Shown: positions 12,701 to 60,458 of the stretch, in pieces
Position numbering within the stretch: the first letter of the stretch is position 1
Layout: every line of letters starts with the position of its first letter
Origin: an uncultured Bacteroidota bacterium
GTDB taxonomy: Bacteria; Bacteroidota; Bacteroidia; JABEUT01
Reading direction: 5' to 3'
Assembly (NCBI GenBank): GCA_903901055.1
Contig: CAIUPO010000107.1
Location: 12,707 to 76,706, forward strand
DNA: 64,000 nt
The notes under the pieces: generated by a model
Database searches by the model: none
What the model saw: only the letters and a program-made list of their open reading frames with translations
Told to the model about the DNA's origin: nothing
Program-made: the position numbers and the translations under genes

Positions 12701-12725
12701 TCATAAACAAATAAAAACAAACATC

Positions 12726-28709: not shown

Positions 28710-28818
28710 ACTAAGGGGAATTATTTGGTCGCAAAGATAGATTTATGAAAACACTTCAGATATGATTTTTCTCATTCAATGAATAAATGATAATTGTTCT
28801 TCTGAAAAAAAAGTATCC

Positions 28819-29426: not shown

Positions 29427-32400
29427 TCAAAATTCAAACTTCGGTTCTTTTAAATCTATTTCAGGGAGTCCATCTGTCTTCAATCTTTTATTCAACGTTT
29501 TTAATTCAGCTATTAATACTCTCCAGCTTTTCCAAATTTTTTCAAACCTGTCATTAGCTGAAATGGCCTGTTCAATACATTGTGTTGTGGGCTCCATATC
29601 TGTAGTTTGTAACAAACCGAGGCATGTTTTTAATTGGTCATTAAGGGAGGCTCGGCCTTCCGGTATTCCATCCGTCAGCAAATGTTTTATCCACCCCAAT
29701 TTAAAGTAGCAAGTGTCGATATTGTTACGGAGGCTGTCCGGATTTTTTCCATTTAATTTATCGGGAAGTCCCTTTAACTGGGCTTGCCAGGTGTTTGCAT
29801 TTTGCAATATTTCAATAATTTTTTGTGCATCGTGATAACAGAGGACAGAATAATCATGTTGTTTTTCTAGTCCTGAAAAAGATGTTTTTACTCTTGGGTC
29901 CATTTTTACCGTGAGTGTTTGCATATATACTTTTCCATTCACCGTTAGTCGGACAGAATAATTGCCCGGCATTACCCAAGGGGAATTGGGTGCTGGTGCG
30001 GTTTCTCCAACCATGGCTGAAATAGGGTAGGAGGGTGGTAAATTCAATGGTGTATAATGCATGTCCCACAAAAAACGGTGCGAGCCTGAATCAGTGGAAA
30101 GTATTTGTTGAGGACGAACCCAATACAATGGAATATTTACATCAGGAATTTTATAAAGGCTATCGGTGCTGCTGTATTTCCGCATCATAACTCCGTTGGA
30201 ATCCATTATCGCCAAAGTAACTTCACCTGTGCTTTTCCCATGGATATAATAATCTATAATGGCACCATCCGGAGGATTTTTTCCGGCGGGTTCATCAGCA
30301 GGGAGAGGAGTGTCCGACCACATATCCCAACGTACTCTATAAGCATCTTCCGGTTTATAGAGAGTGGCTTTTTCTTTATAAATAGTTTTATCAATTTGCC
30401 TTAAAGATGTAATATCATCCAAAATCCAAAATGAACGGCCATGTGTTGCAACCACAAGGTCATTATCTTTAATTGTCAAATCACGAATAGATGTTGCAGG
30501 CATATTCAACCGCAATGATTGCCAATGGTCTCCATCATCAAATGAAACATATACGGCCCGTTCAGTTCCGGCAAACAACAAGCCTTTGCGGATAGGGTCT
30601 TCTTTCACAGAATTGATTGGTGCATCAGGTAAGCCGTTTACAATTTCCTTCCATGTTTTGCCTCCATCTTTTGTTCTGTAAATATGTGGGTGCTCATCAT
30701 TCAAGCGAATACAATTAACCGCGGCATATGCTTCATAAAGGTCTGTATGGCTTGCTTCGAGCATAGAAATTTTATTCCAGCTTTTTATTTCCGGGGGAGT
30801 AACATTATCCCATGAAGCGCCACCATTATATGTTCTATGAATTAAACCATCATCGGTCCCTGCCCAAATCCAATTTGAGTTGCCCGGACAAATGGCCAGT
30901 GAATAGATTACTCCCCGCCTTTTCATCGTTTTCATGGAATCATTAGTGTATATTCCTACCGAAGCAGGTATAACATATTCTTCTCGGGTGAGGTCAGGAG
31001 AAATAACATCCCAGGAACTACCCCCATCCTCAGATTTAAAAACTACATTTCCCGCGAAGTAAAGCGTATTAATATATTGCGTGGAAAATACAATTGGCGC
31101 AGTTCGAAGAAATCTATATTTTCCATTATGACAATCCGGAGTAATGTCTTGTGACTGTCCTGTGCGCTTGTCATACTTAGAAATTTTTCCACCGTAAATA
31201 ATATTAGGGTCTGATGGGTCGGCAACTACATATCCCCATTCTTCAGCAGCAACAGGATGCCAGTCGTGAAATGTTATTTGCCCGTCATTACTTCGTGATG
31301 CAACACCTGCGGAGCCGCTTTCTTGTTGAGCTCCCAACACATTATACGGAAAAGCATTATCAGTACTTACATGGTAAAACTGCGCTGTTGGCTGATTGTA
31401 CCACGAACTCCAAGTCCTGCCACCATTCACAGTAACTGCTGCACCCTGATCTCCGGCTAATAAAATTACGTCGGAATTTTCCGGATTAATCCACAAACGA
31501 TGATAATCATCCCCACCCGGCGCACCTTTCCAGCCATTCCATGTTTTACCACCATCCAAAGATTTCCATGTAACAACGTTTACGTCATACACAATATCAG
31601 CATTTTTCGGGTCCGCTTTTATTTCCGCAAAATCATCACCACGGTCCCAATAACGAATATCATTACTCATCAAGGTCCAAGATTCACCTGCATCATCGCT
31701 GCGATAAATCCCCCCTTGTTTTTGGGAACTTACAACAGAGTACATACGGTTGGTGTTTGATGGCGCAATGCAAAAACCAATTCTGCCCAGACCTTCATTT
31801 TTTCCCGGTAATCCTTTTTCCAATTTCTTCCATGTTGAGCCACCATCAATGGATTTGAAGAGTCCGCTATTCGGGCCTGTAAACTCGCCATTCTCCCAAG
31901 GCCCCTGACGTGCTTCAAAAATATCAGCATAAATAATATCTGAATTTTTCGGGTCAATGGTAACTTGAATTGCTCCGGAATTTTCGTCTATATAAAAAAC
32001 CTTTGTCCAAGTTATACCTCCATCAATACTGCGGTAAACGCCGCGCTCTGTGTTAGGTCCGTACGGATGCCCTAATACAGCAGCAAAAACCCGATTTTCA
32101 TTTTTCGGATCAATGGCAAGGCCGCCAATCTGGTATCCATCTGCAAGTCCGAGGTGCTTCCATGTTTTGCCTCCATCAATGGATTTGTACATACCATCGC
32201 CAACGGATAAATCAGGACGCTGAACACCTTCGCCGCTGCCTACATAAATTACATTCGGGTTAGATTGTGAGACTGCTACATCACCAATTGACCCTGTAGG
32301 CATACTGTCAAAAATGGGTTGCCATGTTCTGCCATAATCATCACTTTTCCAAACACCACCATCATTAACGCCCATGTAAAACATATTCGGATGACCGATT

Positions 32401-32567
32401 ACACCGGTTGCACCAATGGTCCGCCCACCGCGGAAAGGGCCGATGCAACGCCACTTCATACAATTGAAAAGGGAAGGATTGTATGGCTGCGCCGAAAGAG
32501 TAGAAAGGGAAAAGTAGAAAGTAGAAAGGAAAGGCAGAACAAAATATTTTTTTAATCGCGAATGCAT
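29427..32567 (-). CDS. BNR/Asp-box repeat (sortilin/VPS10-like, GH74-like fold) secreted protein
   Basis: 1046 aa with a signal peptide and at least 10 S.DGG.TW Asp-box motifs (SIDGGKTWKHL, SIDGGITWTKV, SLDGGKTWNG, TKDGGKTWKE ...). Confidence 0.6.
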   Translation of the reverse strand: MHSRLKKYFVLPFLSTFYFSLSTLSAQPYNPSLFNCMKWRCIGPFRGGRTIGATGVIGHPNMFYMGVNDGGVWKSDDYGRTWQPIFDSMPTGSIGDVAVSQSNPNVIYVGSGEGVQRPDLSVGDGMYKSIDGGKTWKHLGLADGYQIGGLAIDPKNENRVFAAVLGHPYGPNTERGVYRSIDGGITWTKVFYIDENSGAIQVTIDPKNSDIIYADIFEARQGPWENGEFTGPNSGLFKSIDGGSTWKKLEKGLPGKNEGLGRIGFCIAPSNTNRMYSVVSSQKQGGIYRSDDAGESWTLMSNDIRYWDRGDDFAEIKADPKNADIVYDVNVVTWKSLDGGKTWNGWKGAPGGDDYHRLWINPENSDVILLAGDQGAAVTVNGGRTWSSWYNQPTAQFYHVSTDNAFPYNVLGAQQESGSAGVASRSNDGQITFHDWHPVAAEEWGYVVADPSDPNIIYGGKISKYDKRTGQSQDITPDCHNGKYRFLRTAPIVFSTQYINTLYFAGNVVFKSEDGGSSWDVISPDLTREEYVIPASVGIYTNDSMKTMKRRGVIYSLAICPGNSNWIWAGTDDGLIHRTYNGGASWDNVTPPEIKSWNKISMLEASHTDLYEAYAAVNCIRLNDEHPHIYRTKDGGKTWKEIVNGLPDAPINSVKEDPIRKGLLFAGTERAVYVSFDDGDHWQSLRLNMPATSIRDLTIKDNDLVVATHGRSFWILDDITSLRQIDKTIYKEKATLYKPEDAYRVRWDMWSDTPLPADEPAGKNPPDGAIIDYYIHGKSTGEVTLAIMDSNGVMMRKYSSTDSLYKIPDVNIPLYWVRPQQILSTDSGSHRFLWDMHYTPLNLPPSYPISAMVGETAPAPNSPWVMPGNYSVRLTVNGKVYMQTLTVKMDPRVKTSFSGLEKQHDYSVLCYHDAQKIIEILQNANTWQAQLKGLPDKLNGKNPDSLRNNIDTCYFKLGWIKHLLTDGIPEGRASLNDQLKTCLGLLQTTDMEPTTQCIEQAISANDRFEKIWKSWRVLIAELKTLNKRLKTDGLPEIDLKEPKFEF

Positions 32568-32654
32568 AAGGTAGATTTTAAATTCAAAGGTATTATTTTC
32601 TCTTTTGAATATGTATAAAGAGTAGCTTTGTCGAATAACCCCAAATCATAATCT

Positions 32655-35256: not shown

Positions 35257-35307
35257 ATGCTTGTATGGTGAACTAAGTTTGCCTCAACAAATTAAAAACA
35301 AAACGTT

Positions 35308-35772
35308 ATGAAAAAATTAATCTTACCAATCGCGATGTTCCTAAGCATAGCATTTGCCGGAAACATGAAAGCGCAAGAAATTGCAGCTGACCCTAATGCA
35401 CCTATAATTACCTTTCAAGTGGATACCATTGATTATGGTACTATTCCGCACAATGCTGATGGATACCGCTCATTTAAATTTACCAATACAGGTAAAGAGC
35501 CGTTGATGATTAAAGAGACCCATGGTTCATGCGGATGCACTGTGCCTACTGCACCCAAAGAGCCAATTCAACCGGGACAAAGTGGAGAAATTAAAGTTCA
35601 CTACGCTACCGACAGAATAGGTCAATTCTTCAAGAATGTAACAGTAACAAGTAATGCATCAAATTTTTCAAAAATTGTTTATATAAAAGGGAATGTATTG
35701 CCAGATCCTGCAACTGCGCAGGGCACTCCAAATACTCCTCCAAAGCCGACAGTTCCAGCGGCAGGCCACTAA
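35308..35772 (+). CDS. DUF1573-domain secreted protein, paralog 1
   Basis: Signal peptide. DYGTIPHNADGYRSFKFTNTGKEPLMIKETHGSCGCTVP...GQSGEIKVHY matches the DUF1573 signature (..SCGCT..). Confidence 0.6.
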   Translation: MKKLILPIAMFLSIAFAGNMKAQEIAADPNAPIITFQVDTIDYGTIPHNADGYRSFKFTNTGKEPLMIKETHGSCGCTVPTAPKEPIQPGQSGEIKVHYATDRIGQFFKNVTVTSNASNFSKIVYIKGNVLPDPATAQGTPNTPPKPTVPAAGH

Positions 35773-35943
35773 ATTTGCTTTTCATGACAGGCGGGGGCAG
35801 CTATTAAATTAGCTACTCCCGTTTTTTATTTTATAACGTTTTACATTAACATTTCATTAATAAATATTGGCTAACAGGGGAAACTTGTATTGAACAGTAT
35901 GTTTGCCTCATCAACTAATTATTAATCTTTAAATTTTAACGTT

Positions 35944-36399
35944 ATGAAAAAATTAATCTTACTCACCGCTGTTAGCTTTCAGCTATTGACTATCAGCTTT
36001 CAAAGCAAAGCACAAGATGTTGCGACAGACCCGAATGCACCTGTTATTAAATTTGTACAGGACACTATTGACTATGGAACCATTCCGCACAATGCAGATG
36101 GAAACCGCACTTTTAAATTTACAAATGCAGGGAAAGAGCCACTACTGATTAAGGATGTTAAGACTGTATGCGGTTGTACAGTTCCAAAATCATGGCCGAA
36201 AGAGCCAATTCAGCCAGGAGGTTCGGGTGAGATAGTGGTTCACTATGCTACCGACAGGATTGGTGCACTTCTGAAAAACATTACTGTTCTGAGCAATTCT
36301 TCCAATGCAAATAAAGTTCTAACGATAAAAGGAAATGTGCTGCCCGATGCAACTGCGAAAGCTTTTCCGCCTGATTCTCCTGCTCCGGCTGCCAAGTAA
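35944..36399 (+). CDS. DUF1573-domain secreted protein, paralog 2
   Basis: Same motif set (VCGCTVPKSWPKEPIQPGGSGEIVVHY) and a near-identical 5' UTR and start region. Confidence 0.6.
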   Translation: MKKLILLTAVSFQLLTISFQSKAQDVATDPNAPVIKFVQDTIDYGTIPHNADGNRTFKFTNAGKEPLLIKDVKTVCGCTVPKSWPKEPIQPGGSGEIVVHYATDRIGALLKNITVLSNSSNANKVLTIKGNVLPDATAKAFPPDSPAPAAK

Positions 36400-36419
36400 A
36401 TTAGATTACAACATAAAGA

Positions 36420-36455
36420 GGGGTAGCTAATTAATTAGCTGCCCTTCCTTATTTT
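36420..36455. terminator. palindromic terminator GGGGTAGCTAATTAATTAGCTGCCC plus T-tract
   Basis: Perfect 12-bp arms around AATT, then TTCCTTATTTT. A weaker homolog lies at 35793..35828. Confidence 0.45.
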
Positions 36456-37747
36456 CAATATATCGAATAGTAATAAATATCGTCATCAATAATAACTGCC
36501 AATTTTGTTGATGAAAATGGAATAACGTTAGTGGAGGTGATACTTTTGTTTTTTCGCAATTTTGTTTTCAGCGTTTTCTTTCCGTTGGAAACAAGCAAAT
36601 AATAGGCTGATTTGCTTTGGTCGCTCGGAGAATAGCAATTGATAATTGAAGTTTCCCACTTTCCACCAGGTAATATTGTTGCCCGCATTGGGAGATAAAC
36701 CGGCCATGTTGTAGTAGCAGCAAACTCAGGAATTTCATCTTTCATATTAATACCATTTTCATACTCGCCATCTGAAAGAGAATAAAATTTTGTTTTACTT
36801 ACCCCCTGAACATTGTAAAAACTACAAACATATTTATGCAAGCTATTCATAATGCTTACATCATCGGTGTAATCAGGTAACTCATGCTTCCAGTAATTTT
36901 TGCCGCTATAATTCATGGCATAAATCCAGGTAGCACGTTCACTATACATTTGCGCATAAACCAGAAACATAGTATCATTCACGTTTGCTGTTCCAATACC
37001 CCATGAGCTTGTTTCAGCAGGCATATCTACTATGGTTTCGAATAGTTTGCCCTTACTTAGTGAATATTTTTGGACAGTCAGAATAGATGATTGCTTAGTC
37101 CAGTTTACAATAAATACCTTGTCATCATCAATAAATGAAATATCCGATTCACTGTGTGGTTCACGGATTGTGGCAATTTTCTTCAACGTGCTGTCATAAA
37201 AATTAATGTACAGGCTATCTCCTTTTTTCAACGTTTGAGTAAGATGGAATATTCCTTTTTCCGATGTATGGCAAGATGTAGATGAGCCCATTTTACGGGA
37301 AGGAAAAATAATTGAATCGGTGCAGTGCAAACCTTTTGTTGTAACAGAATAAATTCTGAAAATACTATCACCTTCATCTTCCGTAATAATTTTTTTCCGG
37401 CTCAAAAATTCGCAAAACTCACCGGGCCCAAGATTGAAAGAATTTTTCATTCCCAGAATTTGAAGTGCATACTTCACTTCAGCTGGTGGTGGCGGAGGAG
37501 GAACGTATTTAGTTGTATCCCTCGGTTCATCATTTCCTGCTGCAATTTCATATACTATATTTTCTTTCGGCTGAAGTTTATAAATGTAAACAGAAGGCAC
37601 ATAAGGAGTTTTTTTAGAGAACTCTATGTCGGTAATATGTTTGCCGTAATTAAGTGTTTGGGTAAGATGCAGAGCTTGGGAATTACAAATAAAGGGCCCA
37701 ATTAGAGCAACTAATATAATTAGTTTTTTTCCGATTTCCGATTTCAT
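36455..37747 (-). CDS. hypothetical secreted protein
   Basis: 430 aa with a signal peptide and a PPPPPPAE run. No motif recognised. Confidence 0.35.
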   Translation of the reverse strand: MKSEIGKKLIILVALIGPFICNSQALHLTQTLNYGKHITDIEFSKKTPYVPSVYIYKLQPKENIVYEIAAGNDEPRDTTKYVPPPPPPAEVKYALQILGMKNSFNLGPGEFCEFLSRKKIITEDEGDSIFRIYSVTTKGLHCTDSIIFPSRKMGSSTSCHTSEKGIFHLTQTLKKGDSLYINFYDSTLKKIATIREPHSESDISFIDDDKVFIVNWTKQSSILTVQKYSLSKGKLFETIVDMPAETSSWGIGTANVNDTMFLVYAQMYSERATWIYAMNYSGKNYWKHELPDYTDDVSIMNSLHKYVCSFYNVQGVSKTKFYSLSDGEYENGINMKDEIPEFAATTTWPVYLPMRATILPGGKWETSIINCYSPSDQSKSAYYLLVSNGKKTLKTKLRKNKSITSTNVIPFSSTKLAVIIDDDIYYYSIY

Positions 37748-37768
37748 GTTCTGTATAAAGGCTTATGC

Positions 37769-38578
37769 TTAGTAATATACTATTGTCCGCTCGGTCAGGG
37801 TATTTTCCACCAAAGGCATATTAATCATAGTGGTATATTTTTTAATCCAATTGCCATGCGTGTCGAATTCATATTTAAATGTCCAGTGGGTATGAGTATT
37901 ATCAACCGGGCTACTCTCATCAGCCTCAATGGGGTTGCCATTTTCGTCATATTTAAAAATCTTTTTTCCCAGCAGATTGTCCCCTTTATCACTTCGGGTT
38001 TCATCTTCCAGAATATTTCCTTTTCCATCGGTTTTAATATTCTGTTTGTAACTAAGGTCTTTGAACCCATATACGTCAATACTAATCAAGTTTCCTTTTT
38101 CATCGTAATTGGAAATTTCTTTACCGGTCATGGTAAGCTTTGATTCCTTTTCAGGCCGTAGAATGTCCTTTTCTATTATCACGCCATTATCAAGGCATAG
38201 ATAAATATTTCTTTCTGTAGTTGTGCTTTGGTCACCTGTATAAAAATTATCTTCCTTATTACCTTGTTCATTTATATTGGCTTCGGAACGTGAACTGGCA
38301 ATATCATCCGGTGTATACACAGCTCCTTTTAATTTCCGCCCGGCGGTATCGAATTCAAAGTATTCATTCCCTGTTACATCTTTTGACAATTTTCGCAATT
38401 GCCCAAAAAGTGAATCTACCTTATACGTATTGTCGCGTATAGATTTCACGTTGCCTTTAAGGTTCATTTCTGAGCGTGTTAACAGCTTTTTATAAGCGGC
38501 ACTCCATTCTGATTTTTTGCCTTTGCAGGAAATCAATAAAATAAAAAGTGCGAGAGGTAGTAATAATTTATATTTCAT
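37769..38578 (-). CDS. hypothetical lipoprotein with YD-like (Y/F-D-x-x-G-N) short repeats
   Basis: LLISCKGK lipobox. Repeats YDEKGNLISID, DGKGNILEDE, YDENGNPIEAD, FDTHGNWIKKY. Confidence 0.35.
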   Translation of the reverse strand: MKYKLLLPLALFILLISCKGKKSEWSAAYKKLLTRSEMNLKGNVKSIRDNTYKVDSLFGQLRKLSKDVTGNEYFEFDTAGRKLKGAVYTPDDIASSRSEANINEQGNKEDNFYTGDQSTTTERNIYLCLDNGVIIEKDILRPEKESKLTMTGKEISNYDEKGNLISIDVYGFKDLSYKQNIKTDGKGNILEDETRSDKGDNLLGKKIFKYDENGNPIEADESSPVDNTHTHWTFKYEFDTHGNWIKKYTTMINMPLVENTLTERTIVYY

Positions 38579-38665
38579 CGGCTTTAGAATTACTCATTGT
38601 ATAAAACAGCGTAAAGGTAATAACTATAGCGGATTCTCATTAATACCGATAACCAAGATAATCTC

Positions 38666-39214
38666 TCACTTAGAACTCACAAAATCAATCCACAAATAAT
38701 CATTCACTGTCGGGTCGACAAAATATTTTTCTCCTGTTTTTTTATTTTCAATCACATTAAAATCGTGGTCTTTGAAGAATGCAGAATGCAAATGTTTGTT
38801 GATGTTCGCCCCAAATAATTGCTGCTGTCCAACTAATGACAAGCTATTCCAATCATATTCATATTCTGTGAGGAGATAATTACATGTTGAATTAAAAAAT
38901 GCAGAGTACCCAATGCAGTTTGTTTTTTGTGAATGAATAAGGCTATTTGGATTGTATTCACATTTTGAGGTGGTGAAACTCAACTCATCGGAAGTTATTT
39001 TCAAGGAGAGTTTAATAATATCTTCAACGGAATTAATTTTTGTATCCTTTTTTTTGCTGTCAACAAAATCCCTGAATGCCTTGTCCGGCGTATAAGATTG
39101 ACGATAGTCAAGAATAGTGTAATTAACACAATGTCTGTAGAGCCATCCCCTGAAAATGACAATAATTGCAAGGGAACAGACGAGTACTAGAAAAATACGT
39201 TTTACGTTTTTCAA
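38666..39214 (-). CDS. membrane-anchored transglutaminase-like (Cys-His-Asp) superfamily protein
   Basis: N-terminal TM. NCIGYSAFFNSTCNYL (Cys core), HLHSAFFKDHD and GEKYFVDPT resemble the TGase-like motifs C..[FY][AS]..F / H.W / DPT. Confidence 0.45.
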   Translation of the reverse strand: MKNVKRIFLVLVCSLAIIVIFRGWLYRHCVNYTILDYRQSYTPDKAFRDFVDSKKKDTKINSVEDIIKLSLKITSDELSFTTSKCEYNPNSLIHSQKTNCIGYSAFFNSTCNYLLTEYEYDWNSLSLVGQQQLFGANINKHLHSAFFKDHDFNVIENKKTGEKYFVDPTVNDYLWIDFVSSK

Positions 39215-39810
39215 CTTTTTGAAAGAGTAGTGCGATTAAAAAGAAAGTAAGATATAAGGTCAACTATAAACTTTGCCCCGACCAGAATAAAAGCATAAAA
39301 ATCCTCGACAGGCATCATTTTTTTCTTAAAGCAGACAGTAGAAAATACCAGAGCAGCAAGAATCATAATTCTCCCGTAAGGAGCGAAAAAGAAATCATCG
39401 GGTTTTGTTGTATGGTAAATTCCAGTCATAATATAGCTGGAGTAAAAGTTTGCAAGGCAGGCAATCATAAGCGAAATGAATGCAAGTTTGAAATCAAAAT
39501 TCCAGAAATCGAGTTTATGAATATCTATCACAAAACTTAAGGTTACGATGCTGAGAATAAAGATAAACGCAAAATAATGCAGGCAGAAAAAGAGAATGAT
39601 TTTTGTTTTAGTGGTTGAGGTAGGAACGCCGATGCTGTCTGATTTTTTCTCTGCCAGTGCCATTTTCAGCACATTAAAAAAACCAACCATGAAACATTCC
39701 ATTAAAAAGACCAGGATTATCTGGTAGATGTTCCATCCTAAAAAGCATACACCAATAATGGTTATGGAATTAATAAGAAACAACGTTAAAATTGGAGCAA
39801 GTTTCTTCAT
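39211..39810 (-). CDS. polytopic membrane protein (hypothetical)
   Basis: 199 aa with about 6 TM helices. 4-nt overlap (ATGA) with the downstream gene, so likely an operon. Confidence 0.4.
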   Translation of the reverse strand: MKKLAPILTLFLINSITIIGVCFLGWNIYQIILVFLMECFMVGFFNVLKMALAEKKSDSIGVPTSTTKTKIILFFCLHYFAFIFILSIVTLSFVIDIHKLDFWNFDFKLAFISLMIACLANFYSSYIMTGIYHTTKPDDFFFAPYGRIMILAALVFSTVCFKKKMMPVEDFYAFILVGAKFIVDLISYFLFNRTTLSKS

Positions 39811-39814
39811 TTAT

Positions 39815-40972
39815 TTATTCCTTTTTAAACGTCCATGTGTAAATATCAAAAAGCTTTGCGTCCGGATTTTCATCTACAGCTTTTTGAAATATTGCATCGC
39901 AGTCATCTGTTGTGCAATCGAAAAACAAGGGTTGATCTTGCCAAAAGTCACTACCTCTGTCACCTTTTAATACCGGGTTCCATATCTTACTATATGCCCG
40001 CTCCTGCACTTGGTCCATAGTCATATCCGGGTCCGCTATAATAATCCAACGATGCAATTCTAAAGTTGGCATGGATGTAGTGTCCTGGTCAACAATTTGC
40101 CCTTTTGAAACTCTTCTCACTAAATAAATATATTTCTTATGGTCAGGTGCACGAGCAAATTCTTTTGTAGCAACATCGCCTGTTCCACATAAATTCAGGT
40201 CGGTTTTAAATTCTGTATGACGATCATCAAGTACGCCATAAACCTCTAATAAATCATTCTTGTTTGGAATACATTTAATGGTATTATCATTAAAATACAA
40301 TATACGCAAGGAGGATGGTATATGTGGAATCGCAGTTAGATTATTGCCTAATACATTCAGTGAAGAAAGCCCTTCAGGCAAATCGGGCAGGGAAGTCAAA
40401 TTACACCAGTTGGCATTGATACTTATGATTGATGAAGGGAGCGCCGGAAGTGATGCAAGCGGGTTGGAACTGCAATTTAATATCTGCAAGCCGGAAGGGA
40501 GAGAAGGCAAAGTCTTTAATTCGTCATCGTTGCACCAAAGCTCCGTAAGCCCTGAAGGCAATTCCGGCAACTCCTCGATATTACAATGGGTGCAATAAAG
40601 CTTAATAAGAGAAGATGGCAATGGCGGTAATTTAGGTCCCCAGTTATATTCAATGGTCAGATATTGCAAGGATGTAAACCCTTCAATACCTTCCAGGTTA
40701 TGGTTCTCAATTAAATTTCCCCCAACAACCAAAGTGCTGAGTTTAGCTGCAGGAGGCAAAAGGTTTCCCGCAGTATCAATACATTCCGGACATTGTTGCA
40801 CGATTGCTTTATAAAAATACGGATCCTTGACGGGTATGGGTTTTGCAGGGGGAGCTGGCGGTTGTGCCTTATGAAGGCTGCTAACAGATTTTTTTGAACG
40901 TTGCTGTGCGCATAGTGTAAGAGAAATGAAGAATGAGAAAAAAAGAATGAATGGGGATTTCATAAAACTCAT
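39815..40972 (-). CDS. secreted leucine-rich-repeat protein (bacterial LPxLPxxL-type LRR) with unknown C-terminal domain
   Basis: Signal peptide. At least 6 repeats of about 20 aa, LP.LPSGL..L.C..N.L(T/A)SLP, as in IpaH/YopM/SspH-type LRRs. The C-terminal ~170 aa are unassigned. Confidence 0.6.
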   Translation of the reverse strand: MSFMKSPFILFFSFFISLTLCAQQRSKKSVSSLHKAQPPAPPAKPIPVKDPYFYKAIVQQCPECIDTAGNLLPPAAKLSTLVVGGNLIENHNLEGIEGFTSLQYLTIEYNWGPKLPPLPSSLIKLYCTHCNIEELPELPSGLTELWCNDDELKTLPSLPSGLQILNCSSNPLASLPALPSSIISINANWCNLTSLPDLPEGLSSLNVLGNNLTAIPHIPSSLRILYFNDNTIKCIPNKNDLLEVYGVLDDRHTEFKTDLNLCGTGDVATKEFARAPDHKKYIYLVRRVSKGQIVDQDTTSMPTLELHRWIIIADPDMTMDQVQERAYSKIWNPVLKGDRGSDFWQDQPLFFDCTTDDCDAIFQKAVDENPDAKLFDIYTWTFKKE

Positions 40973-41157
40973 GGCGATTTTTGAATCAAAAATAATAAAT
41001 TAAATGCTTTGATTTTAGAATTGAACATATTGCATTGTAATGTTAAAGATAGTTAAAACGTGTCAGTACTCGCATAAAAGGCAACCATACACAATTTACA
41101 GCCTATAATTTCCGTTAATATTGCATTATAGAAGTTATCATATTTCCGTACCACAAA

Positions 41158-44100
41158 ATGAAAAAACTATTCCTCCTTATCGCATTTCTGCTTTCAATTT
41201 TCAACTTTCAATTTTCAACATCTCTTTCAGCGCAAGATGATCCTTTCTATAAAGAAGATTGGAAGAAAGTGGAAGCATATACTAAGAAAAACCTGATGCG
41301 CTCTGCCATTGCCAAAACCGATAGTATTTACCGGAAAGCAAGAAAAGCAAATAACACAGCAGAGGTTGTGAAATCTATCATTTTCCGGATGAATTATGAG
41401 TATGGTGTAGATGATTCTGCTACCGAAAAATGGATTTATAAATTGAAAGGAGACATAAAAGCAGCACACTGTCCCGAGAAGCAATTACTCTCCTCGCTGC
41501 TCGCCGAAATGTATTGGAGCTATTATGAAAAAAACCGTTACCGTTTTTATTACCGCACGGAAACAATCAACTTTAAGGATGACGATATAAGTACATGGGA
41601 TATTACAAAAATTGTAAAAGAAGCTTTGGCCTGTTATAAGGCTTCGCTTGAAAATTCTGATAGTTTGAAAATGATTGACATTGATAAATTTGATGTGATA
41701 TTAAATAAAGGAAACGCCACAGAACTGCGCCCTAAACTGTATGATTTTCTTGCCCATCGCGCCCTAACATTTTATGAAAGCAGCGAACCGGAAATAAGCA
41801 GACCTGCTGTTCAATTTAGTTTGAATGATGCAATATATTTAACGGATTATACTAAATTAACTAAATTAACAATAACAACAGATGACTCACTCTCGCTGAA
41901 ATTTTATGCTTTGCAAACCTTGCAACAATTATTAGCTTTCCATTCTACAAATAATGCTAAGGATATTGCCCCGCTTATTGATGTGGATCTGGAACGCCTT
42001 CATTTCGTCCTGCAGCAGGCTGCCAATATGGAAAACAAAGACAGCTCATTCGTAAGTGCCTTACGAAACCTGAGAGATAGATTTAAGTCAGACCCGGCAT
42101 CTACCGAAGTAGATTATCAACTGGCTATGTTTTATTATTCGAATGCTACTTATAAGCCGGCAACGCCTGACAATACAAGGTGGTTCAGGAAAAAAGCTTT
42201 AATAATTTGTGAAGCCTCCGTAAAGCGTTTTCCTGAATCGTATGGTGCTGAAATGTGTAAGGATCTTGAAGTCTCTATAAAGCAAAAATCTACTTCTTTT
42301 TCTCTTCCTCAAGTTAATATTCCAGGGAAACCATTTCCTCTTGTGCTCCAGTTTCAGAATATGGACAAGGCTTACATCCGGATAATAAAAGTAAGTCCGG
42401 AAAAGTATGAGGAGGAATATGGTTATGAATACTATAACAAGCTTCCTAAGGAGTGGTCAACTATTGTTCCTGTCAAGGAATGGACAGTTGATTTACCAAA
42501 GGAAACCGATTACCAAACGCATTCAACAGAAGTGGAGATGCCAGCACTTGCACCGGGGTTTTATATGGTGCTCGTTTCACCGAACAATAAGTTTACATGT
42601 AACAAAAACCTGGTGGCTTACAAAGGTTGCTGGTCAAGTAATTTAAGTTATGTTGTGCGTACACAAAATGACGGCACAAAAGAATTTACTGTGCTTGACA
42701 GAACTACCGGAGTGTCTTTGAAGGGAGTACATGCACAGGTTTTGTATAATAGCGAATATGATTATTCTACACGTCATTACAAATCAACAAAAGGGCCTTT
42801 GCTTATTACAGATGCAGACGGACATTGCATATTGCATCCGCGCAAAGACCACTATGACAATATGAAACTTGACGTTACCAATGGCAAAGACCGCTTTCTG
42901 GATTTTGAGTCGACATACATGTATGATTATAGCTATAACGCCAAGAAAGAATGGCGTCCTGTTTCCTGTTTCTTTACTGACAGGGCTATTTACCGCCCCG
43001 GGCAGACGGTTTATTTCAAAGGTATTTTATTAAAAACAGATGGAGATAAAAGTTATCTTGACTCAAATACGGCTACCGAAGTTGTCTTATATGATGTGAA
43101 TTATCAGAAGGTGACAAGCCTAAATTTGGTTTCAGATGCGTATGGTTCGGTTAGCGGAACATTCGTGCTTCCTATGGGATTGTTGAATGGTACCATGCGA
43201 ATTTATGACGGGCGGGGAACAAAATATATACAGGTGGAAGATTACAAACGCCCGAAATTTTATGTGAGTTTAGATACGGTGAAAGGCAATTTCAGGTTAG
43301 GTGAAACGGTTAACATTACTGGCACTGCAAAGGGATACAATGGTGCAAGTATTGATGGTGCAACTGTAAAATACCGTGTTGAACGGAGAGAAAATATTCC
43401 ATGGTGGTACAGTTTTTACTGGGGACGATATAATTCCTCGGGCTCAACTCCAACAGAAATTACAAATGGAACAATTACCTCCAACGACACAGGTGGAATA
43501 GCATTTAATTTTAAGGCGCTGCCTGATATAAATGAATCGAAAATATATAACCCATCATTTGTATTTACAATTTATGTTGATGTAACCGATGCTAATGGCG
43601 AAACACACAGCACACAAACCGATGTACAGGTTGGATATACTGCCATTTCGCTGGATGTTCAGCTTCCGCAAAGGCTTGATAAAACCGGAACTGATACTTT
43701 CAAAATTGAAACAACAAATATGCAGGGGAGTAAAGTTTTTGCTTCTGGAAATATTGTAATCTATAGGTTACAGGAGCCCAAAACCATTTATCGTAGCCGT
43801 CTTTGGAGTATGCCTGATACATTTATTTACAATAAGCAGCAATGGGATACAGCTTTTCCCGGCGACGCTTACCGGAATGAAGATGAAGTTATAAATTATC
43901 CCAAAGGAGAAAAAGTGCTGGAGCAAAGTTTCAATACCGGAGATAAGAGGATGTTTATTATTCCTTCTGTTTCGGGCTGGCAGCAAGGAACCTATGTAAT
44001 GGAAGCTCATACAAAAGATGCCTACGGACAGGATGTAAGAGACTTGAAATATTTTACAGTTTATTCTCCTGTAGATAAAAATATCCCTACAAATACACCG

Positions 44101-47100
44101 GACGATTTCAGTGTAATTAAGAACTATTGCGAGCCCGGAGAAAAGGCAAAATTCCTGATTGGTTCAGCGTATGATAATGTGACCGTGATGTATGAAATAG
44201 AAAAGAAAAATAAGATTGTTCATCACGAATGGCTTACCTTAAACCATGAACAACGTATGATTGAAATACCTGTCGAAGACAGCGACCGGGGCGGATTCGG
44301 AGTGCATTTTGTATTTGTGAAAAACAATCGCGTATATACCCACGATGGTAATGTGAATGTAAGCTGGGCCAATAAAAACCTGACATTGAAATTTGAATCA
44401 TTCCGCAATAAATTATTGCCAGGGCAAAAAGAAGAATGGAAAATAAAAGTGAAAGACTACAAAGGGCAAAAAGCGAATGCACAAATGATGGCGACCTTGT
44501 ATGACGCTTCATTGGATGAGTTTGCAACAAATGGCTGGTCGTTGGATATATATCCCTATTATGGGGCAAGTTTATACTGGTCGGACCCCCGTATTTTCGG
44601 TTCATTTGATGCATGGGCATGTGCTGACGATTGGTACAGCTATAGTAAGCGAACATTTTATCGTTCTTATGATCAATTAATTTCCGCCGGATATTATTAT
44701 ACAGCATACACCAATGCTTATACCTGGTCATGGGATTACGGCGGGAGCGCAGGATACAGGGAAAGGATGGTTACAAGAGGGGGCTCATACAAGTCATTAG
44801 AATTGCAAGATGAAGTTGTAAACGCAAAAATGGACAATAAGATTGCAGCAGGCAATATTACTACGATTGCTACCGGAAGTACAACTGCAGCAGCTACCCC
44901 TGCAGCGCAGAGTCAACCTGATGAAGCCCGATATTTAATAGTTAAAGGAGAGAAAAAATCAGGAGGTAAGCATGAGGATTTCAGGGGGGGCGATGGTGAA
45001 GATGATAAAGATGTTGAAGGAGGAAAAGAAGGCAAGGATCTTTCTAATGTTGCAGCCCGTGCGAATTTTAATGAGACTGCATTTTTCTATCCAACATTGA
45101 ATACCGATGACAGTGGAAATGTGGTGATTCAATTTACTGTGCCGGAGGCTACAACCAAATGGAAAATGATGGGTATGGCACATTCAAAAGATTTGAAAAT
45201 CGGGTATATTCAAAATCAACTTATTACGCAAAAAGATTTAATGGTTACTCCAAATGCTCCACGTTTTTTACGGGAAAGTGATACTATTAACTTTACATCC
45301 AAAATAACAGATTTAGCTGATAAAGATTTAACAGGAGCTGTGCAATTATATCTGTATGATGCACTTGATATGTCCCAAATGGATCCCTCGGGAAAAGATA
45401 TCACAACTCAATTTTTATCAAAGCAGACGCAGCAAACGTTCTCTGTAAAGAAAGGCCAGAGCACTGTTGTTACATGGCAATTGATTATTCCAAAAGGCGT
45501 TGATGCTGTCACATATAAAGTAGTTGCACAAGCCGGAAATTATAGTGACGGAGAACAAAATACTTTGCCAATACTCACCAACAGTATGCTCGTTACTGAA
45601 TCCATTCCGCTATCAGTAAGAGGAAAACAAAAACGCACTTTCACATTTAATAAATTGCTCAATCAGAACAATCATTCCACTACGTTGAGAAATCAGAAAG
45701 TGACGTTGGAATTTACGGCTAATCCGGCATGGTATGCTATACAGGCATTGCCTTATATTATGGAGTATCCATATGAATGTGCCGAGCAAACTTTCGACCG
45801 TTTTTATGCTAACAGTATTGCTTCGAACATTGCAAATTCATCACCGAAAATAAAAGCAGTTTTCGAAAGTTGGAAGAACCGTTCACCTGATGCATTTTTA
45901 TCGAACCTTGAAAAAAATCAGGAGTTGAAATCGCTTATGCTGGAAGAAACTCCTTGGGTGCTTGAAGCAAAAGATGAATCGGAAAGGAAGAAAAGAGTGG
46001 GCTTGTTATTCGACCTGAATAAAATGAGCAATGAATTAGCCGCTGCACTTAATAAGTTAGAAAAGAAACAACTCTATAACGGAGGCTGGTCGTGGTTTCC
46101 GGGTATGCCTGCTGACAGATATATGACGCAATATACCATCACAGGTTTTGGTCATTTGGATCATCTTGGAATAAAAAATGTACGGGGTGATAACCGGGTT
46201 TGGAACATGGTTTATAAAGGAGTTCAATTTATGGATGAGCGGATTAAAGATGATTACAACTGGATATTAAAATACGATCCGAAAAATGTTGATAAGAACC
46301 ATCTGGATTATGAAGCGATACAGTATCTCTACACCAGAAGCTATTTCAAAGACATTCCTGTAAGTTCCTCTAACCAGGCAGCATTTGATTATTATAAAGG
46401 ACAGGCACAAAAGTACTGGGCCAAGGAAAATAGTAATTACATGGAAGGCATGATTGCACTTGCGTTATGCCGTTATGGGGATAAGAAAACAGCATCAGAT
46501 ATTATGGCTTCATTAAAAGAAAATGCTACTAACCGCGAAGAGATGGGAATGTATTGGGCAGGCGACGAAGAAGGATATAACTGGTACAACTCAAACATAG
46601 AAGAACACGCTTTAATGATTGAAGCATTCGATGAAGTTAGTAACGACCAAAAATCAGTTGAGGCATTGAAAGTATGGTTGCTGCGTAGCAAGCAAACACA
46701 GGATTGGGGAACTACTAAAGCTACCGCTGAGGCTTGCTATTCCTTGCTGTTGAAGGGTAGTGATATTTTGGCAAGGGAGCCACGCATCGATATTAACGTT
46801 GGAGATAAAAAAATAAAACTGGCTCCTTCGGGAGATTCTGTTGAGCATGGAGAAGCAGGCACAGGCTACTTCAAAACATCATGGACAGGCAGCGACATAA
46901 AACCTGAAATGGGAAATATTACAGTCTCGAAAAGTGATTCAGGATTGAGTTATGGGGCAGTGTACTGGCAGTATTTTGAGCAGTTGGATAAAATTACTCC
47001 GCATAAAACTCCGTTGAGTATTGATAAGAAATTGTTTGTGGAAAGAGTAACTCCATCAGGATTAGTAATGGAACCAATCACATCATCCACACATTTGAAA

Positions 47101-47430
47101 GTGGGTGATAAAGTGAAAGTGCGGATAGAATTGCGTGTTGACCGCGACATGGATTATGTGCAGATGAAAGACATGCGGGGCTCGTGCATGGAGCCAATTG
47201 ATGTAATCTCCGATTACAGATACCAGGATGGATTAGGCTATTACCAAAGCACCCGCGATGCCGCGACTAACTTCTTCTTCGACCATGTACATAAAGGCAC
47301 TTATGTTTTTGAATATGCTATGTTTGTTACCAATAAAGGCAATTTCTCCAACGGAATTACAACCATACAATGTATGTATGCACCGGAATACAATAGCCAT
47401 TCGGAGGGAGTGAGGGTTAAAGTCGAGTAA
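41158..47430 (+). CDS. alpha-2-macroglobulin family protein (bacterial A2M-like, large)
   Basis: 2090 aa with a signal peptide and a long array of beta-sandwich-like segments. EYPYECAEQTFDRF resembles the thioester motif C-x-E-Q followed by the A2M receptor-binding-type C-terminus. Confidence 0.7.
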   Translation: MKKLFLLIAFLLSIFNFQFSTSLSAQDDPFYKEDWKKVEAYTKKNLMRSAIAKTDSIYRKARKANNTAEVVKSIIFRMNYEYGVDDSATEKWIYKLKGDIKAAHCPEKQLLSSLLAEMYWSYYEKNRYRFYYRTETINFKDDDISTWDITKIVKEALACYKASLENSDSLKMIDIDKFDVILNKGNATELRPKLYDFLAHRALTFYESSEPEISRPAVQFSLNDAIYLTDYTKLTKLTITTDDSLSLKFYALQTLQQLLAFHSTNNAKDIAPLIDVDLERLHFVLQQAANMENKDSSFVSALRNLRDRFKSDPASTEVDYQLAMFYYSNATYKPATPDNTRWFRKKALIICEASVKRFPESYGAEMCKDLEVSIKQKSTSFSLPQVNIPGKPFPLVLQFQNMDKAYIRIIKVSPEKYEEEYGYEYYNKLPKEWSTIVPVKEWTVDLPKETDYQTHSTEVEMPALAPGFYMVLVSPNNKFTCNKNLVAYKGCWSSNLSYVVRTQNDGTKEFTVLDRTTGVSLKGVHAQVLYNSEYDYSTRHYKSTKGPLLITDADGHCILHPRKDHYDNMKLDVTNGKDRFLDFESTYMYDYSYNAKKEWRPVSCFFTDRAIYRPGQTVYFKGILLKTDGDKSYLDSNTATEVVLYDVNYQKVTSLNLVSDAYGSVSGTFVLPMGLLNGTMRIYDGRGTKYIQVEDYKRPKFYVSLDTVKGNFRLGETVNITGTAKGYNGASIDGATVKYRVERRENIPWWYSFYWGRYNSSGSTPTEITNGTITSNDTGGIAFNFKALPDINESKIYNPSFVFTIYVDVTDANGETHSTQTDVQVGYTAISLDVQLPQRLDKTGTDTFKIETTNMQGSKVFASGNIVIYRLQEPKTIYRSRLWSMPDTFIYNKQQWDTAFPGDAYRNEDEVINYPKGEKVLEQSFNTGDKRMFIIPSVSGWQQGTYVMEAHTKDAYGQDVRDLKYFTVYSPVDKNIPTNTPDDFSVIKNYCEPGEKAKFLIGSAYDNVTVMYEIEKKNKIVHHEWLTLNHEQRMIEIPVEDSDRGGFGVHFVFVKNNRVYTHDGNVNVSWANKNLTLKFESFRNKLLPGQKEEWKIKVKDYKGQKANAQMMATLYDASLDEFATNGWSLDIYPYYGASLYWSDPRIFGSFDAWACADDWYSYSKRTFYRSYDQLISAGYYYTAYTNAYTWSWDYGGSAGYRERMVTRGGSYKSLELQDEVVNAKMDNKIAAGNITTIATGSTTAAATPAAQSQPDEARYLIVKGEKKSGGKHEDFRGGDGEDDKDVEGGKEGKDLSNVAARANFNETAFFYPTLNTDDSGNVVIQFTVPEATTKWKMMGMAHSKDLKIGYIQNQLITQKDLMVTPNAPRFLRESDTINFTSKITDLADKDLTGAVQLYLYDALDMSQMDPSGKDITTQFLSKQTQQTFSVKKGQSTVVTWQLIIPKGVDAVTYKVVAQAGNYSDGEQNTLPILTNSMLVTESIPLSVRGKQKRTFTFNKLLNQNNHSTTLRNQKVTLEFTANPAWYAIQALPYIMEYPYECAEQTFDRFYANSIASNIANSSPKIKAVFESWKNRSPDAFLSNLEKNQELKSLMLEETPWVLEAKDESERKKRVGLLFDLNKMSNELAAALNKLEKKQLYNGGWSWFPGMPADRYMTQYTITGFGHLDHLGIKNVRGDNRVWNMVYKGVQFMDERIKDDYNWILKYDPKNVDKNHLDYEAIQYLYTRSYFKDIPVSSSNQAAFDYYKGQAQKYWAKENSNYMEGMIALALCRYGDKKTASDIMASLKENATNREEMGMYWAGDEEGYNWYNSNIEEHALMIEAFDEVSNDQKSVEALKVWLLRSKQTQDWGTTKATAEACYSLLLKGSDILAREPRIDINVGDKKIKLAPSGDSVEHGEAGTGYFKTSWTGSDIKPEMGNITVSKSDSGLSYGAVYWQYFEQLDKITPHKTPLSIDKKLFVERVTPSGLVMEPITSSTHLKVGDKVKVRIELRVDRDMDYVQMKDMRGSCMEPIDVISDYRYQDGLGYYQSTRDAATNFFFDHVHKGTYVFEYAMFVTNKGNFSNGITTIQCMYAPEYNSHSEGVRVKVE

Positions 47431-60064: not shown

Positions 60065-60458
60065 TGGTTTTATGTTATTTGGAGGGCAAAAATAGGATTT
60101 TTTTCGAAAAAATGATAAATTCTTTTTGGGAGCGTAGGGGCTGATGTAATAGCTTTTGGTAAGCGATGATATGAGTTAAATCATGCTCAAACCTAACAGT
60201 TCTCACAAAATTACCCTTGCTTCGACCCTAGTTTTGTATTGTATAAAACCTACATTTTATGAAAGAAAACATGGGATTAGCAGACAAAATTATCAGGATA
60301 CTGGTTGCAGTTATTATTGCAACACTTTATTCAATGCACTTATCCCTACCTCAAACAGGTCAAATTTCTCCGCAGGAAAAAGGTATGGAATAACGGTTAC
60401 ATCAGGCACTAAAGGGCATTATATGAGCATAAATTTTGGAGTTATGCCCATATAGTTT

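Follow-up and report, generated by a model that had tools for sequence, protein, structure and literature searches.

Three closely packed genes on the minus strand of contig CAIUPO010000107.1 (assembly GCA_903901055.1), from an uncultured Bacteroidota bacterium, encode an exported leucine-rich repeat (LRR) protein, a membrane protein of the DUF6498 family and a membrane-anchored transglutaminase-like (TGase-like) protein. The stretch analysed, hereafter the window, spans 64,000 nucleotides (contig positions 12,707 to 76,706) and all coordinates refer to it. With a probability of about 0.7, we consider the three genes to belong to a string of closely spaced cell-envelope genes particular to this lineage, and not to a dedicated three-component system. 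The conserved element is the TGase-like protein, which would act alone at the membrane on some component of the envelope. A 1.8-kb block carrying the LRR gene and a divergent DUF6498 gene separates the TGase-like gene from its upstream region in this species, and the tight packing with the TGase-like gene would stem from a compact insertion or deletion in a series of genes for envelope proteins.

The LRR gene (39815-40972, minus strand, 385 aa) is followed after a gap of 4 nt by the DUF6498 gene (39211-39810, minus strand, 199 aa), which itself overlaps the TGase-like gene (38666-39214, minus strand, 182 aa) by 4 nt through a TTGA start/stop. These three co-directional open reading frames lie where an earlier note, made from the letters alone, had placed them. 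They are divergent from a gene encoding an alpha-2-macroglobulin-like (A2M) protein of 2090 aa with MG2/A2M/bMG10 Pfam domains (41158-47430, plus strand), as also described there. The intergenic region between the LRR and A2M genes (40973-41157) measures 185 bp.

This arrangement can be compared with that of a sister contig, L086. The window and L086 are syntenic across more than 10 kb, at 78-80% nucleotide identity, including the genes for DUF1573, a histidine kinase, a response regulator, a BNR/Sortilin protein and an M28 peptidase. In blastn alignments, positions 1-123 of L086 correspond to window 41156-41034, that is, to A2M-proximal intergenic DNA, and positions 133-678 correspond to window 39213-38674, that is, to the TGase-like gene; the alignment then goes straight on to window 35831 and below. 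In L086, the A2M-side intergenic DNA runs straight into the start codon of the TGase-like gene, with no LRR or DUF6498 gene in between. Therefore, the window holds two extra blocks. Block 1 (39214-41033, about 1.8 kb), absent from L086, comprises the LRR gene with its leader and the DUF6498 gene; about 125 bp of the intergenic region, on the A2M-proximal side, are kept in L086. Block 2 (35832-38673), also absent from L086, contains two downstream genes named p269 and p430 as well as a duplicated DUF1573 gene. The right breakpoint of block 1 is the TGase-like start codon itself; L086 has GTG there, and the window has a TTG that overlaps the stop codon of the DUF6498 gene. Since L086 keeps the TGase-like gene, this gene represents the syntenic core of the locus, and the LRR and DUF6498 genes form an accessory 1.8-kb indel. 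Block 1 may reflect either an insertion in the window or a deletion in L086.

Two surveys of gene neighbourhoods were carried out. The first covered 80 genomic loci with a TGase-like homologue, from different species of many Bacteroidota lineages, with up to 10 kb of flanking DNA each. When the LRR protein, its C-terminus, DUF6498 and A2M were used as tblastn queries, no match was found at these 80 loci, and a hidden Markov model built from 80 DUF6498 representatives matched 0 of the 80. A functional link between the A2M and TGase-like proteins was thereby set aside, no A2M relative being found near the 80 homologues. The 130 immediate neighbours of the TGase-like genes were assigned to 145 Pfam families, the commonest of which, YkuD, accounted for 3 of the 130, and all-against-all clustering gave no neighbour family present in more than seven loci. 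The contexts vary, from an Imm17/DUF4262/Ank array in Flavobacterium procerum to a stand-alone gene in Hymenobacter sediminis. The second survey covered 83 DUF6498 loci, totalling 435 kb; a 40-sequence alignment was too divergent for scanning them and a 6-sequence alignment worked. None of the 83 loci contained a member of the TGase-like family, and none contained a similar LRR protein. Recurrent neighbours of DUF6498 are lineage-specific and of a housekeeping type; they resemble an HtrA-like protease, a TonB-dependent receptor and PurK/PurE (sequences read by eye, with no library scan). Judged from these sequence surveys, the trio of LRR, DUF6498 and TGase-like genes is not a conserved system. 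The earlier note had proposed a three-gene system and had itself named a lack of co-conservation elsewhere as a reason to give it up; this lack is what the 80 TGase-like loci, the 83 DUF6498 loci and L086 display.

The TGase-like protein has one N-terminal transmembrane (TM) helix. Its TTG start is credible, as the protein then begins with MKNVKR..., in register with the MKxIKR consensus of the family. The 182-aa protein of the window gave no match with Pfam or NCBIfam. Its family numbers 229 homologues in Bacteroidota, about 186 aa long and distributed among Flavobacteriia, Cytophagia, Chitinophagia, Saprospiria, Sphingobacteriia and Bacteroidia. Among the 80 surveyed loci, a single one is titled as non-Bacteroidota (two titles bear no phylum). 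It lies on a 3-kb contig labelled as a Bacteriovoracaceae metagenome-assembled genome, and because this contig is very short it is probably a binning contaminant and not a true occurrence outside the phylum. In an alignment of 38 homologues, the mean column identity is 62% and 24 columns are invariant, including C100, H150, D151 and D167. In the window, the Cys100, His150 and Asp167 codons are located at 38915-38917, 38765-38767 and 38714-38716, respectively, on the minus strand.

An AlphaFold2 (AF2) model computed on the family alignment reached a predicted local distance difference test score (pLDDT) of 93.2 and a predicted template modelling score of 0.87. In this model, Cys100 starts a helix (100-117), His150 starts a β-strand (150-157) and Asp167 is located just past the following strand (163-166). 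The top PDB matches of the predicted model in Foldseek, with probabilities of 0.9-1.0, are all TGase-like cysteine peptidases: TglA, 4xz7, 3isr, LapG, TgpA, PNGase and PeiP/PeiW. LapG from Legionella/Pseudomonas, the periplasmic domain of TgpA from P. aeruginosa, the putative cysteine protease 3isr from Cytophaga hutchinsonii, TglA from S. pyogenes and the pseudomurein endoisopeptidases PeiP/PeiW thus share the fold predicted for the TGase-like protein, including a cysteine at the N-terminus of a helix, with the histidine and the aspartate on the following two strands. However, the window protein is only 8-13% identical to these enzymes, and it is much smaller, with a domain of about 150 aa and a single N-terminal anchor helix. 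In addition, LapG has a partner, LapD, whereas the TGase-like family has no conserved partner gene. At the sequence level, the Pfam model Transglut_core (PF01841) was detected below threshold in 29 of the 38 relatives at E≤1, with a best value of 1.3e-4, and ten relatives scanned singly scored 12-15 bits, for a cut-off of 23, always over the region of the cysteine helix. The assignment to a TM-anchored TGase-like protein with a Cys/His/Asp signature, made in the earlier note, is thus borne out by the fold and the invariant motif and falls short at the Pfam sequence threshold. Overall, we are confident that the 182-aa protein is predicted to adopt a transglutaminase/papain-like fold with a putative Cys-His-Asp triad, and the family, for which there is no Pfam or NCBIfam model, is a new, uncurated one within the TGase-like superfamily.

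The catalytic domain most likely faces the periplasm, because the short positively charged N-terminal tail and the single helix resemble a signal anchor; this orientation is uncertain, as charges are found on both flanks of the helix. By analogy with its structural neighbours, the TGase-like protein most likely functions on its own, tethered to the membrane, as a cysteine peptidase, an isopeptidase or an amidase. Its substrate would probably be a conserved envelope component, as with LapG, TgpA and the Pei enzymes; LapG and the matched TgpA domain are periplasmic according to their PDB descriptions. The strong sequence conservation of the family is compatible with such a self-sufficient, conserved function. 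In F. procerum (loci L004 and L026; around positions 8001-8561 of L004), the homologue is found inside a long array of small genes on the same strand that looks like an immunity island. Such a context was not retained as general for the family, as no recurrent immunity families appeared in the neighbour survey.

The LRR protein begins with a signal peptide (residues ~1-22, nt 40907-40972, minus strand), in which a hydrophobic segment (residues 3-21) ends in LTLCA|QQ, an A|QQ cleavage-type motif; a Pro-rich linker comes next. The LPX-type LRR domain (residues 78-241, nt 40250-40741, minus strand) consists of one 24-aa repeat followed by seven exact 20-aa repeats (residues 102-241). Against the PDB, the best-matching structures were YopM (4ow2, E=4.5e-44) and SspH2 (E=1.8e-34); SspH1 and many IpaH LRR domains were also retrieved, the IpaH/SspH LRR domains having E values from 1e-14 to 1e-34. 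NCBIfam models of SspH2 and SlrP match the protein over its LRR part only; for SspH2, the match covers model positions 242-382 of 788, with 86.5 bits for a cut-off of 1243. The 20-aa LPX repeat, with its consensus L..L.c..N.L..LP.LP.., therefore identifies an LRR scaffold homologous to that of YopM, IpaH, SspH and SlrP, and the secreted, IpaH/YopM-type protein with regular 20-aa repeats announced in the earlier note is recovered.

Unlike those effectors, the window protein carries a Sec signal and the Pro-rich linker in place of a type III secretion system (T3SS) signal and a helical cap. Moreover, the NEL domain of IpaH, SspH and SlrP is absent. Instead, the LRR domain is followed by an unrelated orphan C-terminal region of about 145 aa (residues 242-385, nt 39818-40249, minus strand). 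The C-terminal 151 aa gave no Pfam or PDB match even at E≤10, and no relatives of this domain were found in Pfam, in the PDB, in a collection of 5.8e9 proteins or in JGI metagenomes, so that it stays unassigned, as first described. An AF2 model of this part from the single sequence was too poor for use (pLDDT 31-51). No C-terminal sorting domain of the type IX secretion system (T9SS) was detected by the Pfam scan. The whole protein had no match in viral contigs by scanning or in plasmids by tblastn, and PADLOC and PHROGs returned only LRR matches. The Sec-type signal argues against delivery by a T3SS. The host of the window is an environmental Bacteroidota, as judged from the affiliations of the homologues, unlike the hosts of YopM and IpaH, and Bacteroidota are not known to use a T3SS. 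Its Sec signal and the lack of a NEL domain place the LRR protein outside the NEL effector family. An effector role, which the earlier note had in mind, thus finds no support in the Sec signal, the missing NEL domain and the missing T9SS sorting domain. To judge from its sequence, the LRR protein most likely serves as a binding scaffold, exported by Sec and ending in an orphan C-terminal module.

The 199-aa protein is a clear, full-length match to Pfam DUF6498 (PF20108; E=7.7e-27, 94.4 bits for a cut-off of 23.7), over residues 5-186 and model positions 10-192 of 207. It displays six hydrophobic segments, in line with the six-TM polytopic protein of the earlier note. A word-indexed search returned the query alone, and exhaustive HMMER was used instead, giving 966 representatives at E≤1e-3, of which the closest is 40% identical. 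The protein keeps the family-conserved residues E38, N46, F74, F75, H78, P144, Y145, R147, K180 and D184. On the other hand, it lacks several commonly kept histidines, namely those of a 'VHG' motif, an 'SH' motif and the C-terminal HxxxH. By sequence, it is a divergent member of the family. No mention of DUF6498 was found in the literature searched.

The three minus-strand genes are probably co-transcribed, to judge from their spacing, and p269 and p430 may possibly belong to the same transcript. Both are co-directional with the trio: p269 (37769-38578, minus strand) follows the TGase-like gene after an 87-nt gap and encodes a lipoprotein with YD/RHS-like repeats (weak RHS/YD-repeat signal), and p430 (36455-37747, minus strand) comes after a further 21-nt gap and encodes an exported protein without assigned family. 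The Bacteroidetes -7 promoter motif is TAnnTTTG. On the minus strand, from 41157 to 36833, a single match to this motif is found (TATTTTTG, 40987-40994), 15 nt upstream of the ATG of the LRR gene. The motif shows no enrichment over the whole window, with 78 occurrences found for 84 expected, and the promoter evidence is thus weak. The sole convincing hairpin followed by a T-run (36418-36447) is located downstream of p430. One transcript of three to five genes is therefore plausible, given the packing, the lone -7 match before the LRR gene and a hairpin found only after p430. The operon announced in the earlier note stands in this limited form, with co-transcription made plausible by the tight packing and the single upstream match. 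Because block 1 separates the TGase-like gene from its upstream region, one promoter before the LRR gene would now serve all three genes and probably p269 and p430 as well. Elsewhere in the window, TAnnTTTG is seen 15-40 nt upstream of many start codons, for example at 32585-32592 (minus), 35274-35281 (plus) and 35898-35905 (plus), with further examples upstream of starts at 28732-28739 (minus) and 60087-60094 (minus); these start-proximal matches are compatible with Bacteroidetes-type promoters.

Base composition does not distinguish the locus. The three-gene region has a GC content of 0.373, for a window mean of 0.386, and falls at the 21st percentile of windows of the same length; the indel block (GC 0.379) is at the 31st percentile, and the GC content at third codon positions of the genes is like that of neighbouring genes. 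The region had been called notably AT-rich, which was taken to suggest horizontal acquisition. Its GC content being unremarkable, AT-richness was rejected as evidence of horizontal transfer. What remains of that proposal is the accessory status of the LRR and DUF6498 block, which is based on the indel and not on composition. The flanking mobile-element signatures that the earlier note had suggested looking for were not seen in repeat and tRNA searches, which did not extend to integrase or transposase genes nearby: repeats flanking the indel are short chance matches, and the 64-kb window has no tRNA.

Several points weigh against reading the locus as a mere string of envelope genes. A 4-nt gap and a TTGA overlap are the geometry expected of functionally linked, translationally coupled genes, and the three products are all envelope proteins, so that they may form a functional module of recent assembly. 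The surveys cover the TGase-like and DUF6498 sides, as the LRR protein had no retrievable relatives beyond this species. The indel relies on one Logan contig, and this contig stops 2 nt before it would reach the A2M start codon. A third lineage is represented by the contig carrying a TGase-like orthologue named P0003 (72% identical), on which a co-directional gene overlaps the TGase-like start; this gene could be a DUF6498. As for the TGase-like protein itself, the profile support from Transglut_core is below the Pfam threshold, and the triad is a putative one, derived from invariant residues and the secondary structure of the model. Overall, the data show the gene structures, the family memberships, the predicted fold, the lack of co-conservation and the indel; that the genes are co-transcribed, that the TGase-like domain faces the periplasm and is catalytically active, and that the three proteins function independently is what we infer.

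One alternative is a genuine module, equivalent to the system proposed in the earlier note but restricted to this lineage, in which the LRR protein would recruit a periplasmic target, DUF6498 would anchor or transport it, and the TGase-like protein would cleave or cross-link it. The coupling geometry of the packing, the lone -7-like box upstream of the LRR gene and the export or membrane location predicted for all products are in its favour, and the exact trio recurs on every strain-level contig that could be read. Against this, the partners do not co-occur at any of the 80 TGase-like or 83 DUF6498 loci, each family has its own, unrelated contexts, and L086 retains the TGase-like gene without the other two. 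We regard such a module as unlikely, although it fares best among the alternatives.

A further possibility is that block 1 is a toxin/immunity-like or effector/membrane-partner cassette, made of an LRR scaffold with a C-terminal payload and of DUF6498 as partner, with the TGase-like gene as a bystander. The gene order is reminiscent of polymorphic toxins, as the gene for a small membrane protein starts 4 nt after the one that ends in the orphan C-terminal domain. In addition, the block is missing from the sister contig, the C-terminal domain had no relatives in the searches made, and the DUF6498 of the window is divergent, with only 40% identity to its closest relative. However, no toxin, trafficking (Rhs, PAAR, T9SS C-terminal domain) or immunity domain was detected with Pfam, NCBIfam or PADLOC. 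DUF6498 is a broad, multi-lineage family found beside housekeeping genes and not beside toxins, no LRR protein accompanies it in the 83 loci, and no flanking repeats or tRNAs were found as mobile-element signatures. A cassette of this kind appears quite improbable. Its more specific version, a mobile two-gene cassette with a novel effector or toxin domain of about 145 aa and a dedicated DUF6498 immunity or receptor partner, is more doubtful again; if true, DUF6498 would gain its first link to a function, and the IpaH/YopM scaffold would have a use outside T3SS in Bacteroidota. Lastly, that some of the open reading frames are artefactual, the C-terminal extension of the LRR protein being for instance a frameshift artefact or a decaying remnant, would fit a 145-aa ORFan with a low-confidence model but is very improbable, since 15 contigs, from several samples, encode an identical 385-aa product, the reading frame is uninterrupted, and the LRR, DUF6498 and TGase-like parts have strong family support.

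We therefore favour the lineage-specific string of envelope genes, in which the trio is a chance juxtaposition created by an indel and, for that reason, is not to be counted as a new multi-gene system.

The surroundings of the locus show other differences between related genomes. On a related contig of sample ERZ1426852, the p269 orthologue (P0274) is 92% identical, and the adjacent TGase-like orthologue is P0003, mentioned above. The contrast between the two identities, 92% and 72%, suggests a recombination breakpoint or an allelic replacement between the two genes. In Tenacibaculum ovolyticum (locus L067), a segment resembling p269, with 37% identity over 113 aa, is also found about 4 kb from the TGase-like homologue. 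The DUF1573 genes at 35308-35772 and 35944-36399 look like a tandem duplicate, with about 71% nucleotide identity. After each of them comes a palindromic hairpin that resembles a terminator, similar in the two cases (35795-35824 and 36415-36444), and L086 has only one DUF1573 copy. The BNR/Sortilin-like gene of the window (29427-32567, 1046 aa) is split in L086 (3924-7064) into open reading frames of 388 and 636 aa, which may reflect a frameshift or a pseudogene.

None of the three proteins is categorically new in kind. As to DUF6498, the window protein resembles its Pfam family in its full-length match and six TM segments, and differs from it by an identity of at most 40% to any representative and by the loss of several histidines. 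The LRR protein carries YopM/IpaH-type LPX repeats on a Sec-exported protein from an environmental bacterium, which means that this type of repeat is not diagnostic of T3SS effectors. The TGase-like family, present throughout Bacteroidota and having neither a Pfam or NCBIfam model nor a conserved partner gene, is an easy target for curation and biochemistry.

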